A DNA stretch of 13,938 bases. Source: a virus (lineage: Duplodnaviria > Heunggongvirae > Uroviricota > Caudoviricetes). The DNA is taken from the IMG/VR virus record IMGVR_UViG_2695420793_000015, positions 1 to 13,938 of that record; one strand, given 5' to 3'. The notes under the pieces were generated by a model. It did no database searches. It was not told the DNA's origin and saw nothing but the letters and a program-made list of their open reading frames with translations. Positions within the stretch are counted from its first letter, which is position 1, and every line of letters begins with the position of its first letter. The translations under genes were made by a program, and so were the position numbers. Below, piece by piece: positions 5,881-13,562 of the stretch.

Positions 5881-6305
5881 TGGAACTGTGGCTGACGGTG
5901 AACGGTAAACGCACCTGCGCCAGCGCACCGCTGGATCCGCTGACCCGCGCCGTGGTGATTTCCCTGTTTACCTGGCGGCGGGCGGAGCCTGATGACAACG
6001 CCGACGTCCCGATGGGATGGTGGGGGGATACCTGGCCTGCGGTACCGAATGACCGTTACGGCTCCCGACTGTGGCTGCTTCAGCGCAGCAAACTGACCAA
6101 TCAGCTGGTGCAGACGGTAAGGGGGTATATCCGCGAATGCCTGCAATGGATGATTGATGACGGCGTGGTGTCCCGTATTGATCTGGATATCCGCCGCACC
6201 GGGATTAATGAACTGGGTAACAGTATCACTCTCTGGCGTCGTGACGGACCGGTAATGATTTCTTTTGATGATCTGTGGAGTGCGATAACGCATGGCGGAC
6301 AGTGA
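5877..6305 (+). CDS. Baseplate protein (Mu gp46-like, P2 gpW-like)
   Basis: 142-aa ORF coupled to its neighbours (ATGATG overlap), in the conserved position between the spike and J-like genes. Confidence 0.7.
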   Translation: MMELWLTVNGKRTCASAPLDPLTRAVVISLFTWRRAEPDDNADVPMGWWGDTWPAVPNDRYGSRLWLLQRSKLTNQLVQTVRGYIRECLQWMIDDGVVSRIDLDIRRTGINELGNSITLWRRDGPVMISFDDLWSAITHGGQ

Positions 6306-7928: not shown

Positions 7929-8738
7929 ATGCATCGTATAGACACGAAAACCGCGCAGAAGGATAAGTTCGGCGCGGGTAAGAACGGTTTTACCCGTGGT
8001 AACCCCCAGACCGGCACACCTGCCACCGATCTGGATGATGACTACTTTGACATGTTGCAGGAAGAACTTTGTAGCGTGGTGGAGGCCTCCGGTGCCAGCC
8101 TGGAGAAAGGGCGGCATGACCAGCTGCTTACCGCACTTCGTGCGCTGCTGTTAAGCCGCAAGAATCCGTTTGGCGATATCAAATCGGATGGCACTGTGCA
8201 AACGGCTCTCGAAAACCTTCGTTTGGGGGCAGGCGCTCCAGCTATCGGAATTCCGTTCTTCTGGCCGTCCACAGCGATGCCAAATACAGTGATAGATGAG
8301 TGGTCAGATATGGTGTTTCTGAAATTCAACGGTGCGACATTTTCGGCAACAACTTATCCGAAGCTGGCGAAGGTGATCCCCAGCTTGACGCTAACCGAAG
8401 CTCGTGGTGAGTTTCCGCGTATTTGGGATGATGGGCGAGGTGTAGATGTCGGGCGCGCACTAATGAGCGCACAGGGTGATGCTATGAGAAATATCTCTGG
8501 AACAGTTCGGCTAGCATCCAACTCATATAATCAAAATACAGCAAGGCAAATGACGGGGGCATTTGGATGGAGTGACTCATCGGCTGGAGATGTTACTAAT
8601 TTTTCACTTACAGCTGCATCAAACACATCTAACTATAAAAATGGGGGGTTTACATTTGATTCTTCAACACAGGTTCCAACGGCCTTGGAGAATCGACCGA
8701 GAAACATTGCTTTTAACTTTCTTGTAAGGGCTAAATAA
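7929..8738 (+). CDS. Tail fibre protein (Mu S-like): constant N-terminal part plus the currently expressed variable C-terminal cassette
   Basis: 269-aa ORF with a conserved tail-fibre N-terminus (…[38 protein letters not shown]…) and a Ser/Thr/Asn/Gly-rich C-terminus. GGAG precedes the ATG. A recombination site lies inside the gene at 8206-8231. Confidence 0.85.
8206..8231. repeat. Putative left crossover site of the invertible segment (hix/gix-like 12-2-12: CTCTCGAAAACC-TT-CGTTTGGGGGCA)
   Basis: The half-site TCTCGAAAACC closely resembles Hin/Gin half-sites (TTCTTGAAAACC / TTCCTGTAAACC). The central TT occupies codon positions 2-3 of the stf frame, the same register as in the partner site. 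Confidence 0.55.
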
Positions 8739-9331
8739 TGAAACCTGTTTTTGACGAAAATGGACTGGCTACTGAACCTGGGGAAACTCGTTGTTTCTAT
8801 TACGACGCTGTGACGTCTGAATATATGGGATGGTCAGACGAATATATTAATCTGGGTGTCAGTATGCCAGGGCATTCAACAGATATTGATCCTGGTGATG
8901 AGGTGGCTGGAAAGATTCCAGTATTTACTGGGATTGGATGGGAGCAGCAGGAAGATCATCGCGGGGAAACAGTTTACTCAACTGAAAGTGGTGATGCATC
9001 AATGGTCGATTATATTGGTCCCATCAAGGATGGATTTACAAGCACTGCACCTTCAACGCCATATGATAAATGGGACGGTGAAAAATGGGTGACAGATACT
9101 GAGGCACAGAATATCGCCGTAGTAGAGGCGGCAGAAGCACAGCGGCAGTTTCTGATTGATACTGCAATGGCTTCCATTGGTCTGATCCAACTGAAATTAC
9201 AGGCAGGTCGGAAGCTGACTGAGGCAGAAACAACCCGACTTAACGCTGTGCTTGATTACATTGACGCGGTGACGGCAACAGATACCAGCACCGCACCGGA
9301 TGTCATCTGGCCTGAACTGCCGGAGGCGTAG
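8738..9331 (+). CDS. tfa: Tail fibre assembly protein (Mu U-like)
   Basis: 197-aa ORF whose ATG overlaps the stf stop (TAATG). The C-terminal region (…LDYIDAVTATDTSTAPDVIWPELPEA) is typical of tail-fibre assembly chaperones. Confidence 0.8.
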   Translation: MKPVFDENGLATEPGETRCFYYDAVTSEYMGWSDEYINLGVSMPGHSTDIDPGDEVAGKIPVFTGIGWEQQEDHRGETVYSTESGDASMVDYIGPIKDGFTSTAPSTPYDKWDGEKWVTDTEAQNIAVVEAAEAQRQFLIDTAMASIGLIQLKLQAGRKLTEAETTRLNAVLDYIDAVTATDTSTAPDVIWPELPEA

Positions 9332-9746
9332 GCCATTCAATATCTGGAGCACTGGAGGAATCAACCAGTTCCAGTGCGTCCAGATAATCCAGCCACAAAT
9401 TATATTGCGCCAGTTCCTCACCTTTCAGGCGACCAATCGCTGCTTTACCAGGCCATTGCTTACTGTATATGTATTCGTTGACCTGATTAATCAATTGCTG
9501 CTTTTCCAGTTCGGCTGCGGCAATTTGTTCCTCATGAGTTGGCGGTGGAATTTCCCCCCAGGTGGGAAGGCCATCATCACCCGCGATGCGTACTTTCCCT
9601 TGCAACGTTCTGTCTTCAATAAATTCCAGGTAAGTGTCATATGTCACTTCGACAATATCAGCAAGTTCCCATCCGGCCTGTTCATATTTCGCCACATCAT
9701 TTTTAGCGAAAAAACTGTTATTTGAGGCGCTATAAACTATTTCCAT
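9303..9746 (-). CDS. Alternative tail fibre assembly protein (Mu U'-like), convergent with tfa
   Basis: 147-aa minus-strand ORF with a Tfa-like C-terminus (…LWLDYLDALELVDSSSAPDIEWPTPPAVQAR). It overlaps the 3' end of the plus-strand tfa by 29 bp and sits directly downstream of the minus-strand fibre cassette. Confidence 0.8.
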   Translation of the reverse strand: MEIVYSASNNSFFAKNDVAKYEQAGWELADIVEVTYDTYLEFIEDRTLQGKVRIAGDDGLPTWGEIPPPTHEEQIAAAELEKQQLINQVNEYIYSKQWPGKAAIGRLKGEELAQYNLWLDYLDALELVDSSSAPDIEWPTPPAVQAR

Positions 9747-9747
9747 A

Positions 9748-10323
9748 TTAATACCCTACTGCAAGATAAAAAACAGATTCACCAGCATCCTGGGATGCTG
9801 TCCCTGGAACGCCAGACCATACCTTATTTATAAAAGCAAAACCTGTTTTACTGAGGTCTGACGCTCTGTACATTGGGCTGAATATCCAATAGTTGGATGC
9901 ATATGTTTGTCCGAAAACAATTCCATAGCACTGGTTTGTAAATGGCGTAGAAAATAATTTTCCACCATTACCAGCGATAGCACCGAATCGCATCTGGAAT
10001 CCATTCGGGAAATTAATTCCGCCTGCCGGTGAAGACCAGTAAGACATATCAGGTATTTGCCCAGCACTATTTCCCACGTTTTTTGTTGCAACGGTTCCTA
10101 ACCCAAGATTAGCTCTTGCGTCAGATTTATTTGTTAACTCATAAAGATTATTTGCCTTTTGAAGTGCTCCTGTTATGCGTAAATCATCACCAGCGGCAAC
10201 GGTTCCGACTGTCGTGCCCACATCCCTTTTCGCCGCTTCTCCTAAACCAACCTTTGAAATATTTTTCTGAATCAGGTGATATTTCGCCTCTTCTCCTGTT
10301 TTTACAACAGGAGAAGCACTCAT
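9748..10323 (-). CDS. Alternative tail fibre C-terminal cassette (Mu S'-like), silent in this orientation
   Basis: Gly/Asn/Ser-rich fibre-tip-like sequence on the minus strand. The part from about 10249 downward would fuse in frame to the constant stf N-terminus after inversion. The N-terminal 24 codons and the ATG at 10323 lie outside the segment and are probably not a real start. Confidence 0.7.
   Translation of the reverse strand: MSASPVVKTGEEAKYHLIQKNISKVGLGEAAKRDVGTTVGTVAAGDDLRITGALQKANNLYELTNKSDARANLGLGTVATKNVGNSAGQIPDMSYWSSPAGGINFPNGFQMRFGAIAGNGGKLFSTPFTNQCYGIVFGQTYASNYWIFSPMYRASDLSKTGFAFINKVWSGVPGTASQDAGESVFYLAVGY
10237..10262. repeat. Putative right crossover site of the invertible segment (TTCTCCTAAACC-AA-CCTTTGAAATAT)
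   Basis: The half-site TTCTCCTAAACC matches the left site's half-site at 9 of 11 positions and resembles gix. The central AA on + (TT on -) is in inverted orientation to the left site and in the same codon register in the minus-strand cassette frame. Confidence 0.5.
10290..10316. repeat. Perfect 27-bp palindrome (CTTCTCCTGTT-TTTAC-AACAGGAGAAG) overlapping the invertase ribosome-binding site
   Basis: Two 11-bp arms are exact reverse complements around a 5-bp centre. The right arm contains AGGAG, 9 nt upstream of the pin ATG. The arms share the CTTCTCCT motif with the right crossover half-site. Confidence 0.6.
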
Positions 10324-10885
10324 GATTTACGGGTATGTTCGTGTATCAACAAATCATCAGGATACAGAGTTGCAACGTCTTGCACTTGAGTCAGCTGGCT
10401 GTGAGCGAATTTATGAAGAATATGCCAGTGGCAGAACAGCTAATCGCCCTGTGTTAAAGGAATTAATTACGGTGATGAAAAGTGGAGATGAGTTGATTGT
10501 CTGGAAGTTAGATCGGATAGGGAGAAATGTGCTGCATGCGCTATTGATGTTTCAAAATCTGCACGAAAAAGGTGTTAATTTTCGGAGTATTACAGATGGC
10601 GTAGACCTGAAAACAGCAAGTGGTCGCTATAATTTCCGTAATATTCTTTCTGCTGCGCAGTATGAATCTGATTTGAATAGCGAGCGAACTTTAGCTGGTT
10701 TGGCTATTGCCAGATCCAAAGGCCGGATTGGTGGGCGTAGACCGAAGTTTAGCGACGAGCAGTGGCAACAGATGGGAGCGCTCATAGCGGCAGGGAAATC
10801 ACGGCGTTATGTTGCACGTATCTATAACGTTGGGCTATCAACCCTATATAAACGATTTCCTGTTACTGGCATTCAAACGAAATAA
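10322..10885 (+). CDS. pin: Serine-recombinase DNA invertase (Pin/Gin/Hin family)
   Basis: 187-aa ORF with the resolvase/invertase N-terminus (YVRVSTNHQ, catalytic Ser) and the characteristic C-terminal DNA-binding region (…GRIGGRRPKF…VGLSTLYKRF…). It lies beside the invertible tail-fibre segment. Confidence 0.9.
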   Translation: MIYGYVRVSTNHQDTELQRLALESAGCERIYEEYASGRTANRPVLKELITVMKSGDELIVWKLDRIGRNVLHALLMFQNLHEKGVNFRSITDGVDLKTASGRYNFRNILSAAQYESDLNSERTLAGLAIARSKGRIGGRRPKFSDEQWQQMGALIAAGKSRRYVARIYNVGLSTLYKRFPVTGIQTK

Positions 10886-10925
10886 TTTAAAAGCAATTTA
10901 AAGAGTTATTTGTCTAATGTTGGAA

Positions 10926-10961
10926 GCCGCAGCCACGTCGTATGCAAGAACGTGCTGCGGC
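10926..10961. other. Imperfect hairpin between convergent pin and dinI-like genes; possible bidirectional terminator
   Basis: GCCGCAGCCACGT …loop… ACGTGCTGCGGC (one bulge). There is no clear U-tract on either strand, so terminator function is uncertain. Confidence 0.25.
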
Positions 10962-11028
10962 TGGCTGGCGAACTTTCGATAGTGCGAGTATTGAATGATT
11001 TCCAGCCGTTACCGATTTTACGTGTTAA

Positions 11029-11277
11029 TTAGTGAACAAACCACTCGTCAGCAGATTCCCAGGTATCTTTCAGAGTCTCCTGAACAAAAGTTTTTGCAGA
11101 ATCCTTATCTGCGGTGCGTGTAACAGAAAGGCCATCGTTGCTGGTGGCTTTTACGATCACCTCTACATCGTCATAACGTTTACTGATGCGTCGGGTTAAT
11201 TCTTCCTTTAACGCATCCACAGCACCGGTTGGCATTTTAGTCATTTTTTCTTTGGCTATACAGATTTCAATACGCAT
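11029..11277 (-). CDS. dinI: DinI-family DNA-damage-inducible protein (prophage-encoded)
   Basis: 82-aa ORF ([31 protein letters not shown]…LSV…[17 protein letters not shown]) that aligns along its whole length with E. coli DinI as recalled from memory (MRIEVTIAK…GAIDAL…ELSRRI…QETWESADDWFV). Two LexA boxes lie upstream. Confidence 0.85.
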
Positions 11278-11290
11278 AAAAGTCCCTCTA

Positions 11291-11310
11291 TACTGTGTTT
11301 GTATACAGTA
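11291..11310. promoter_or_regulatory. LexA box 1 (TACTGT-GTTTGTAT-ACAGTA)
   Basis: Exact CTGT-N8-ACAG SOS-box architecture with the flanking TA/TA, upstream of the dinI-like gene and overlapping its predicted transcription start. Confidence 0.75.
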
Positions 11311-11313
11311 TCA

Positions 11314-11342
11314 TTTTTAACTGTATGGATAAACAGTGTCAA
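11314..11342 (-). promoter_or_regulatory. Putative SOS-regulated sigma70 promoter of the dinI-like gene (-35 TTGACA, 17-bp spacer, -10 TAAAAA)
   Basis: On the minus strand a perfect TTGACA (11342..11337), a 17-nt spacer coinciding with LexA box 2, then TAAAAA (11319..11314). The -35 overlaps the integrase stop codon. Confidence 0.4.
11319..11338. promoter_or_regulatory. LexA box 2 (AACTGT-ATGGATAA-ACAGTG)
   Basis: Second CTGT-N8-ACAG motif, 8 bp from box 1, lying in the spacer between the predicted -35 and -10 of the dinI promoter. Confidence 0.65.
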
Positions 11343-12436
11343 GAGGTCTTATTTCTGCTCCTTTGGAGCTCTTCAAAACGATTATGTAAAGATTTCGGAT
11401 ACAGTTCGGTATATACCTGCCATAGCACGTTTAATGAACGATGCCCTGTAACCTGGGCGACTTCCTCAATACTAAAACCAGCCTCAAATAAGCGACTTGC
11501 CCCTTCTCTACGCAAATCATGGTATCGCAGATCTTTAATACCTAATTTGCTTCTTACCCTCTGGAATCCCGCAGTAACAGAAGTGCTGTTATATGGAAAA
11601 ATGAATTCTGATTTTTTGGGTTGTCGTTGGACGATATCCCAGGCTTCCCCAAGCAAGGCTACTTTCATATGGTTGCCTTCCTTTTTACGTGGATCTTTCC
11701 TGTCTCTTACGAGTATGGATTTTTGTTCCTGATCGAGATCCTCCCATCGTAATCGGCATACTTCACCGATTCGCATACATGACCACACAGAAAATTTGAG
11801 GATATCAACGAACGGAATTTTTGAGCATTTATGTGTAGATCGTTGTTGAAGACCTTCAATGAGCATGTCCAGTTCATCAGATGCTGGTCTACGATTACGA
11901 CGATTTGATTTACCAATTAAACCAAGTTTAAGTAGATATGGACGAGCGGCTTTTGCTGGGTTTGATGTGTAATTAATTCCATATACAGGTTTGGCAGCAT
12001 CCAGAACACTGCCAAGATAACTAACATCGTGGCTAACTGTAGCTGGACCTGCACCAGCGTTGTTTCTTAGCCTGCAATGTTCAATTACGTCATTTTCTGT
12101 CAGTTCAGATAGTTTGATCGCGGAGATGTCACTATCCATAAGCAGTTCCAGCACATATCTTTTAGTACGGCCTGCTTTACCTCCGGCATTTGGGTCATTT
12201 AAATATTTGTGTAGTAAGTCACGGACTGTAAGTCCGTCAACTGCATTTGATGATGGAATGCCATATAGATCTAATTCCATCACTTTCTGTGTGCCCCATG
12301 TTTTGGCATGAGCATGTTTAGGGAATGTTTTGCTTTCCCTGTAAGTGATAACACCTTTTTCTTTGATAATCACATTACAGCGATAGCGTGGTGTGCCATC
12401 GGATTTTAGTCGTTTCTCTATGTTATAGTACGCCAT
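11339..12436 (-). CDS. int: Tyrosine site-specific integrase (dusA-associated type)
   Basis: 365-aa ORF with a tyrosine-recombinase catalytic region (…LRYHDLRREGASRLFEAG…VTGHRSLNVLWQVYTE…). It is the last prophage gene and is divergently oriented from dusA. A GAGG ribosome-binding site lies upstream. Confidence 0.9.
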   Translation of the reverse strand: MAYYNIEKRLKSDGTPRYRCNVIIKEKGVITYRESKTFPKHAHAKTWGTQKVMELDLYGIPSSNAVDGLTVRDLLHKYLNDPNAGGKAGRTKRYVLELLMDSDISAIKLSELTENDVIEHCRLRNNAGAGPATVSHDVSYLGSVLDAAKPVYGINYTSNPAKAARPYLLKLGLIGKSNRRNRRPASDELDMLIEGLQQRSTHKCSKIPFVDILKFSVWSCMRIGEVCRLRWEDLDQEQKSILVRDRKDPRKKEGNHMKVALLGEAWDIVQRQPKKSEFIFPYNSTSVTAGFQRVRSKLGIKDLRYHDLRREGASRLFEAGFSIEEVAQVTGHRSLNVLWQVYTELYPKSLHNRFEELQRSRNKTS

Positions 12437-12524: not shown

Positions 12525-13562
12525 ATGCACGATAATCATGAAACACAAAAAATTAATCAAACCAGCGTGATGCCTGAAAAAACTGGTGTTTACTGGAATT
12601 CTCGGTTTAGCATTGCTCCTATGCTCGACTGGACGGACAGACATTGCCGCTATTTCTTGCGTCTGCTTTCCCGCAATACGTTGCTGTATACCGAAATGGT
12701 GACCACAGGGGCGATTATTCACGGTAAAGGTGATTACCTGGCGTACAGTGAAGAAGAACATCCGGTAGCGTTGCAACTCGGCGGTAGCGATCCGGCGGCG
12801 CTGGCACAGTGTGCGAAGCTGGCAGAAGCGCGTGGATATGATGAGATCAACCTGAATGTCGGCTGCCCGTCTGACCGGGTGCAGAACGGCATGTTTGGTG
12901 CGTGTCTGATGGGTAATGCGCAGCTGGTTGCCGACTGTGTGAAAGCGATGCGCGATGTGGTGTCGATTCCAGTGACGGTGAAAACGCGTATTGGCATCGA
13001 TGACCAGGACAGCTATGAATTTCTCTGCGATTTCATCAACACTGTTTCCGGCAAAGGCGAGTGTGAGATGTTTATCATCCACGCACGTAAAGCCTGGCTT
13101 TCGGGGTTAAGCCCGAAAGAAAACCGTGAAATCCCGCCGCTCGATTATCCGCGTGTGTATCAACTGAAGCGTGACTTTCCGCATCTGACAATGTCGATTA
13201 ACGGTGGTATCAAGTCGCTGGAAGAGGCCAAAGCACACCTGCAACATATGGATGGCGTGATGGTCGGGCGCGAGGCGTATCAGAATCCGGGTATTCTGGC
13301 GGCAGTAGACCGGGAGATCTTTGGTTCCTCGGATACCGATGCCGATCCGGTGGCGGTAGTGCGCGCCATGTATCCGTACATTGAGCGTGAACTCAGCCAG
13401 GGGACGTATCTCGGCCATATTACCCGGCATATGTTGGGCTTGTTCCAGGGTATTCCTGGCGCGCGGCAGTGGCGGCGTTATTTAAGTGAAAATGCCCATA
13501 AAGCGGGTGCAGACATTAATGTGCTGGAACACGCGCTCAAACTGGTGGCGGATAAGCGTTAA
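12525..13562 (+). CDS. dusA: tRNA-dihydrouridine synthase A
   Basis: 345-aa ORF with Dus-family motifs (…[14 protein letters not shown]…NLNVGCPS…) and full-length resemblance to enterobacterial DusA; pspG follows immediately, as in the E. coli chromosome. A shorter start at the in-frame ATG at 12570 is possible. Confidence 0.9.

Follow-up and report, generated by a model that had tools for sequence, protein, structure and literature searches.

At its right end, an E. coli prophage inserted in dusA carries a gene of the DinI family which, with its own promoter, two LexA-type operators and a downstream hairpin, appears to make up a self-contained moron cassette of a temperate phage. The promoter is probably repressed by LexA, and the 82-residue product probably acts on the RecA filament; we put the probability of this explanation as a whole at about 0.7. 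LexA control of phage dinI homologues is already established, having been tested for the Gifsy prophages and annotated for phiKO2. What is added here is a clean example of a recognised class and one small point, namely that a second operator is conserved within the promoter spacer.

A DinI paralogue beside the integrase

[quoted passage not shown] The latter (12525..13562, plus strand; Pfam Dus, E 7.8e-105) is the host gene at the junction of prophage and chromosome and is annotated as dusA in ETEC H10407. A tyrosine integrase of 365 residues (11339..12436, minus strand; Phage_integrase, E 1.1e-20) adjoins dusA both in the window and in H10407. The dinI-like gene follows 61 bp downstream of the integrase gene on the same strand, and converges with a serine DNA invertase (10322..10885, plus strand; Resolvase, E 3.3e-36; HTH_7, E 7.3e-12). 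An earlier note on this DNA had described a prophage-borne DinI-family gene between invertase and integrase, and both parts of that description hold: the Pfam matches identify the gene and its flanks, and the closest relatives are a phage and a prophage. The nearest phage is SKA5, with 99.2% identity over the region and a record that lists an APEC strain as host; the prophage in dusA of ETEC H10407 is a close match as well (99.7% identity across the 601-bp query). At the other end of the H10407 prophage, some 40 kb off, there is a partial dusA fragment (6174-6278 of the H10407 extract L163). That prophage has a lambdoid control region and encodes the small subunit of a P27-family terminase and the sheath, tube and baseplate of a contractile tail. 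The gene for its repressor, which lies in a part of the prophage outside the window, is annotated as a ‘LexA family protein’, and by that annotation the repressor is of the LexA-family, self-cleaving type.

Integration is at the 5′ end of dusA, with the integrase gene 88 bp from the intact host gene, and this placement agrees with the published family of dusA-associated integrases (PMC4482086). The H10407 prophage is flanked by host SOS loci, lexA-dinF about 4 kb past its far end (L163 1568-1608) and uvrA/ssb about 10 kb past dusA (L002 27932-27951), an arrangement that probably reflects no more than where dusA normally maps.

To the left of the convergent pair lies an invertible tail-fibre region (7929-10885). 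It consists of a tail-fibre gene with an assembly gene (7929-9331, plus strand), a second assembly gene in the opposed orientation (9303-9746, minus strand), a 191-residue ORF that is putatively a tail-fibre end (9748-10323, minus strand; no Pfam match, but the corresponding spot in H10407 is annotated as gp53-like) and the invertase, which is of the Pin/Gin type. A repeat search around the invertible segment found no inverted repeats of at least 18 bp, and the crossover sites would therefore be shorter or imperfect.

The dinI-like gene itself (11029..11277, minus strand, with the stop codon at 11029-11031) encodes 82 residues from an ATG start, and its coding sequence is intact and conserved. 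The product matches the Pfam DinI profile PF06183 over positions 1-63 of 63 (E 1.1e-19; 70.9 bits against a cut-off of 24.2) and PHROG 189, ‘RecA filament binding protein DinI’, with E 5.7e-31, covering positions 71-149 only of a 151-position profile. A phmmer search of the PDB aligned residues 1-81 with residues 1-79 of E. coli DinI (1GHH/7YWA; E 3.7e-13), and the full-length alignment of the two proteins has 49% identity. At about 80 residues the protein fits solved DinI along its full length, including the C-terminal acidic helix, WESADxWF. It differs from E. coli DinI in a two-residue insertion near the N terminus (KEKMTKMP) and in being phage-borne. The NCBIfam equivalog model for DinI, NF007893, gives 73 bits, under its cut-off of 111, and RefSeq names the protein ‘DinI-like family protein’. 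It is thus a paralogue of DinI and not an orthologue of the chromosomal dinI product; given that score and the 49% identity, RecA binding is a prediction from homology.

The structure of the RecA-DinI complex gives this prediction some substance. In the cryo-EM model L13, L21, W71, W77 and F78 of DinI grip the L2 loop of RecA, and an acidic patch of E24, E69 and D76 faces K232, R243 and K245 (PMC9926225). In the alignment with E. coli DinI the loop contacts correspond to M15, L23, W73, W79 and F80 of the window protein and the acidic patch to E26, D71 and E78, so that all eight contact residues are retained or conservatively swapped. The same columns are kept in nine phage-type homologues, except that the position of E69 is N in three of them. 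The protein therefore belongs to the DinI family, and its predicted RecA-groove contact residues are intact.

Two oddities among the homologues deserve mention. Some E. coli DinI-like copies (P0001-P0003, 108-112 residues) have an internal tandem duplication of about 30 residues, which would break or lengthen the fold. DinI-like genes of enterobacterial type were also found in assemblies labelled Chryseobacterium, Saccharibacteria, Wohlfahrtiimonas and Vagococcus (L087, L091, L092 and L124), where contamination or mis-binning is the likely source.

Two LexA-type boxes in one predicted promoter

On the minus strand the 61-bp leader ahead of the start codon reads cTTGACACTGTTTATCCATACAGTTAAAAATGATACTGTATACAAACACAGTATAGAGGGACTTTT-ATG. 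A Shine-Dalgarno element, GAGG (11285..11288), stands 7 nt ahead of the ATG, and homologues have an aGGAG-type element in the same place. Two LexA boxes were recognised upstream by pattern matching, both on the minus strand. Box 2, TACTGTATACAAACACAGTA (11291..11310, core 11293-11308), lies 13 nt from the ATG and covers the predicted transcription start. Box 1, CACTGTTTATCCATACAGTT (11319..11338, core 11321-11336), occupies the spacer between the -35 and the -10 of the predicted promoter. The -35 is a perfect TTGACA (11342..11337, minus strand), which contains the integrase stop codon TGA (11341..11339) and forms the upstream edge of the cassette. The promoter scan (10 of 12 matches) offered a mediocre -10, either TAAAAA with a 17-nt spacer or AAAAAT with an 18-nt spacer (11313..11319, minus strand), and box 2 begins 5–6 nt past it. 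The GenBank record of mEp460 marks a promoter at this -10 site and calls the gene DinI-like. The earlier note had proposed exactly this arrangement, with two boxes of the form CTGT-N8-ACAG upstream of the gene, one in the promoter spacer and one at the predicted start, and a -35 overlapping the integrase stop; the positions given here confirm each of these points.

The pattern CTGT-N8-ACAG has only these two matches in the 13,938-bp window, 12 bp apart and directly upstream of the dinI-like ORF. In shuffled windows 0.17 matches were expected, and two were reached in 2 of 200 shuffles. We also scored 20-mers by the Berg-von Hippel heterology index, with an approximate matrix made from 22 E. coli LexA sites, three of which were confirmed exactly in H10407 DNA. 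On this scale, where the reference sites run from 0.5 to 9.6, box 2 scores 2.5 and box 1 scores 5.4, the best and second-best values in the window; everything else in it scores at least 13.5. Across about 60 kb of ETEC H10407, covering the prophage and its flanks, exactly five sites have an index below 10: the two dinI-like boxes, the two known lexA operators and the uvrA/ssb operator, the last three serving as positive controls that were recovered. No further site with an index below 10, of the kind that a wider LexA circuit would need, was found in the H10407 prophage, where the dinI-like promoter is thus the one LexA-like target. A chance origin of the boxes is rejected by the shuffles, the heterology index, the H10407 scan and the test on variants described below.

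A search of viral contigs with the protein gave only near-identical copies, which served the test on variants; diversity came from a scan of genome contigs. When 19 close variants of the 68-nt control region are compared, the 16 core bases of CTGT/ACAG are invariant, whereas 17 of the remaining 52 differ (Fisher p 0.005, uncorrected for ancestry shared among the variants). The genome scan, which took one genome per species, yielded 62 DinI-family loci that could be parsed and scored; the start codon could not be placed in 18–20 of 80 genome loci, and the comparative counts accordingly rest on about 60. A LexA-like box stands 13–60 nt before the ATG, typically 13–23 nt, in 61 of the 62. The chromosomal type of dinI has a single box, whereas the phage-type subfamily (MR[IV]EI[SC]IAKEK...) often has two. 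In the shared layout of the latter, TTGACACTGT-N8-CAG precedes an AT-rich -10 region, which is followed by CTGT-N8-CAG and, about 14 nt further on, by the ATG. This two-box layout is found again in homologues from E. coli, Trabulsiella, Mixta and Erwinia at 58–65% protein identity, and the sequence upstream of the -35 is unrelated among the Trabulsiella, Mixta and Erwinia homologues that share it. TTGAC is retained in 12 of 13 aligned homologues, and all of those aligned have the AT-rich stretch between the boxes. Box 1 is lost or weak in Raoultella, in one MAG, in Entomohabitans and in one E. coli copy, and on this comparison box 2 is the operator that stays constant, with box 1 often present as an extra. 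The centre-to-centre spacing of the boxes varies from 24 to 28 bp among homologues, and there is therefore no sign of phased, cooperative binding by two LexA dimers.

Taken together, the scores, the overlap with the promoter and the conservation make this look like a promoter of the E. coli-type LexA (SOS) regulon, and both boxes resemble real LexA operators and are predicted to be binding sites. The LexA-type identity that the earlier note gave them stands: their indices fall in the range of proven sites, their cores are invariant and their layout is conserved across genera. It had also proposed tight repression, which the operator scores alone would suggest. Indirect literature on induction comes from one array study, in which a probe for a dinI-like prophage gene, c0943, moved along with sulA, umuD and recN (PMC2817434). 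A conserved operator in the promoter spacer is undescribed in the literature examined and would be a small variation on an established kind of control region.

Edges and spread of the cassette

Between the convergent dinI-like and invertase genes lies a GC-rich hairpin of 14 pairs with one bulge (10925..10962; RNA fold). The dinI-like 3′ region folds with -35.5 kcal/mol (z -2.6); a T/U tract is absent from the hairpin on both strands, and a terminator scan of the region returned no canonical site. We take the hairpin to be, in all likelihood, a bidirectional terminator, with termination presumed, and the downstream edge of the cassette. On the plus strand, 10922-10959 resembles the 3′ end of CssrB, an sRNA of Shigella, in an Rfam match that stays below threshold (23.5 bits, where the gathering score is 76), a resemblance that probably reflects just a common terminator-like hairpin.

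Comparison with other phages places the edges of the shared DNA at the same two points. Homology to mEp460, cdtI, 2H10, CP-1639 and many Stx1 and Stx2 phages begins at about 10921-10934, the base of the hairpin. In phages without this integrase it ends at about 11345, just upstream of the -35, and in IMG/VR contigs unrelated upstream sequence joins exactly at CTTGA. The unit thus has a promoter and a hairpin of its own, its homology boundaries coincide with them, and it is found in otherwise unrelated phages, as expected of a moron. Stx, cdtI and mEp460 phages carry it, and hundreds of genomes have the gene annotated. Of 5426 complete E. coli genomes, 1801 contain the cassette; a single genome has as many as seven copies, a maximum reached in EHEC genomes across their lambdoid prophages. 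In other genera it is the outermost prophage gene at quite different integration sites: in Mixta and Erwinia the tmRNA gene is about 270 bp away (L095 1368-1731; L098 1351-1731), in another Erwinia a tRNA-Pro gene is about 410 bp away (L102 1511-1587), and in Trabulsiella the cassette adjoins rcsD (L090 17-1660).

Where this integrase is not the upstream neighbour, two or three copies of ATGCCCCA occur within about 35 bp, just before the -35 (L086 ~1900-1960, L089 ~700-750, L046, L060 and others). These repeats may be arm-type sites of an integrase or part of an att site.

Such a distribution bears on who profits from the cassette. The same gene under the same LexA control could pay off through the fitness of the lysogen and not through the phage's own induction: after damage the additional DinI would keep RecA filaments stable for repair and hold mutagenesis and the cleavage of UmuD in check, and the phage would gain only indirectly. 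Its position at the prophage edge, at tmRNA, tRNA-Pro, rcsD and dusA junctions across genera, is that of other cargo, and its presence in a third of complete E. coli genomes in up to seven copies fits such a role. A DinI-like prophage gene is among the gene groups tied to the evolution of quinolone resistance (PMC10575684), and one is listed as a ‘fitness’ cargo gene in prophages of Citrobacter rodentium (PMC6456863); the Gifsy deletions discussed below, which lack an induction phenotype, point the same way. However, the host already owns a dinI gene, the association studies are correlative, and data on survival or mutagenesis for phage DinI-like genes are absent from the literature examined. 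The two roles are inseparable by sequence. A fitness role for the gene is quite possible; that fitness is the payoff in place of induction control we consider rather improbable.

The high copy number in EHEC raises a second alternative, that the cassette is aimed at other elements, holding back co-resident CI-type prophages or altering RecA-dependent anti-phage defences and so giving an edge in polylysogens. Expression of E. coli DinI altered the activity of the Zorya II defence in a preprint (PMC13192584), but that work used the host DinI as a tool and not a phage protein. Specificity for rival repressors is not indicated by the present data, and the case is entirely indirect; we would be surprised if this were the explanation. 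Our preferred reading remains that of a LexA-repressed, DinI-like moron.

A possible role in the late SOS response

If that reading is right, host LexA dimers would sit on both operators in an undamaged lysogen, and with box 1 between the -35 and the -10 and box 2 over the start, the promoter would be shut, as the sequence and its conservation suggest. On DNA damage, RecA filaments would trigger the self-cleavage of LexA, and because box 2 is near-consensus the promoter would presumably open late or under heavy damage, once LexA had fallen far. The product would most likely bind the groove of RecA that is used by LexA, UmuD and CI-type repressors. By homology, a DinI-like protein in that groove would stabilise the filaments and compete with these substrates, and the prophage's own LexA-family repressor could be among them. 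A plausible net effect would be a damping of late SOS outputs, prophage induction included. This is the weakest step of the scheme, and it gains its plausibility from the repressor of the H10407 prophage being of the LexA-family, self-cleaving type.

Several relatives allow the scheme to be judged. E. coli DinI (1GHH; RecA-DinI cryo-EM, 7YWA) belongs to the same Pfam family and has a LexA box just before its start codon, but a single strong operator is typical of the chromosomal gene where the window has two. The dinI homologues of the Salmonella prophages Gifsy-1, -2 and -3 stand behind LexA boxes and accumulate after mitomycin C (PMC3121763), and they are among the LexA-box genes of Salmonella induced by nalidixic acid (PMC8072944). 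They resemble the present gene in being prophage-borne members of the DinI family; LexA control and damage induction are experimental there, whereas LexA binding, the start site and damage induction are predicted for the window. The Gifsy proteins have only 42.5% identity to the window protein, and each gene has one LexA box, 19 bp from the ATG, in place of two. They also lie inside the prophage, past the replication genes, and head an operon with irsA and an antirepressor, gfoA or gftA, that drives induction (PMC3121763), while the window gene stands alone at the int/att end of a prophage whose repressor, judging by the H10407 annotation, is of the self-cleaving type. In the only genetic test that came to light, non-polar deletions of the Gifsy dinI homologues had no significant effect on the levels or rates of induction (PMC3121763), which argues against a strong role in setting the induction threshold. 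The tuning of the host SOS response and of the prophage's own threshold, which the earlier note put forward, is thus hypothetical.

These operons suggest another origin for the gene, as the relic of an antirepressor module under LexA control, such as Gifsy dinI-gfoA or 186 Tum, with the DinI part a near-functionless passenger. DinI homologues are indeed linked or fused to LexA-controlled antirepressors in Gifsy, 186, PSP3 and Fels-2 (PMC3121763), and the fit of the window protein to positions 71-149 of the 151 in PHROG 189 is what would be expected if the longer members were Tum-like. The tum gene of coliphage 186, like the split genes of PSP3 and Fels-2, is under LexA control and includes a DinI-like portion (PMC3121763); at 146 residues Tum joins an antirepressor half to a DinI-like half and drives induction, whereas the window protein is DinI only, lacks an N-terminal extension and has no partner. 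In the 143 bp between the dinI-like stop codon and the invertase gene there is no same-strand ORF of at least 20 residues, and with the protein unextended an antirepressor partner is rejected. The repressor of the H10407 prophage belongs to the LexA family by annotation, so an antirepressor is not needed; moreover, the coding sequence is intact and conserved, and a single-gene unit with its own hairpin is conserved in many phages. A remnant of this kind is unlikely, and we give it very little weight beside the moron explanation.

A further parallel, with the same layout, is gp22 of the Klebsiella phage phiKO2, a single gene convergent with tail genes that has a TTGACA -35, with an annotated ‘putative bidirectional’ terminator in the place of the window hairpin. 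In its GenBank record the gene is given -35 and -10 signals and also a LexA site, which sits some 13 nt ahead of the ATG, after the promoter and before the Shine-Dalgarno sequence. It differs in that the proteins have only 25% identity, there is one intact box, with only a half-site retained in the spacer, the prophage is a linear plasmid, and the control region is common to a divergent UmuD-like gene. The LexA site between the DinI-like and UmuD-like genes of phiKO2 (L165 11708-12411) overlaps both annotated -10 signals. Elsewhere gp22 is cited as LexA-regulated (Casjens 2004, as cited in PMC7556043), and a Serratia phage DinI-like gene is described with a LexA box 14 bp upstream and an orientation opposite to the tail genes (PMC7556043).

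[quoted passage not shown] Unlike DinR, the window hairpin is without a U tract and without an Rfam match above threshold. A crude RNAduplex pairing of 181 nt with the start region of ftsZ gave -37.3 against a shuffle mean of -41.2, with no excess, and a DinR-like sRNA from the 3′ UTR is not supported.

A bolder version of the scheme would treat the cassette as a mobile ‘SOS timer’, swapped among phages, that sets when RecA filaments stop serving the cleavage of repressors. With box 2 so close to consensus, expression would wait until deep in the SOS response, and the protein would then block the cleavage of CI-type repressors, either the phage's own or those of rivals in polylysogens with up to seven copies. 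We think this doubtful, and distinctly improbable on present evidence. If it were true, the cassette would shape which prophage is induced, Stx prophages included, and how strongly.

The broader question is what a copy of DinI does for the many temperate enterobacterial phages that have one, here as a cassette present in about one third of complete E. coli genomes. If the cassette does alter the co-protease activity of RecA late in the SOS response, this would bear on the induction of toxin-carrying phages by antibiotics and on SOS mutagenesis.
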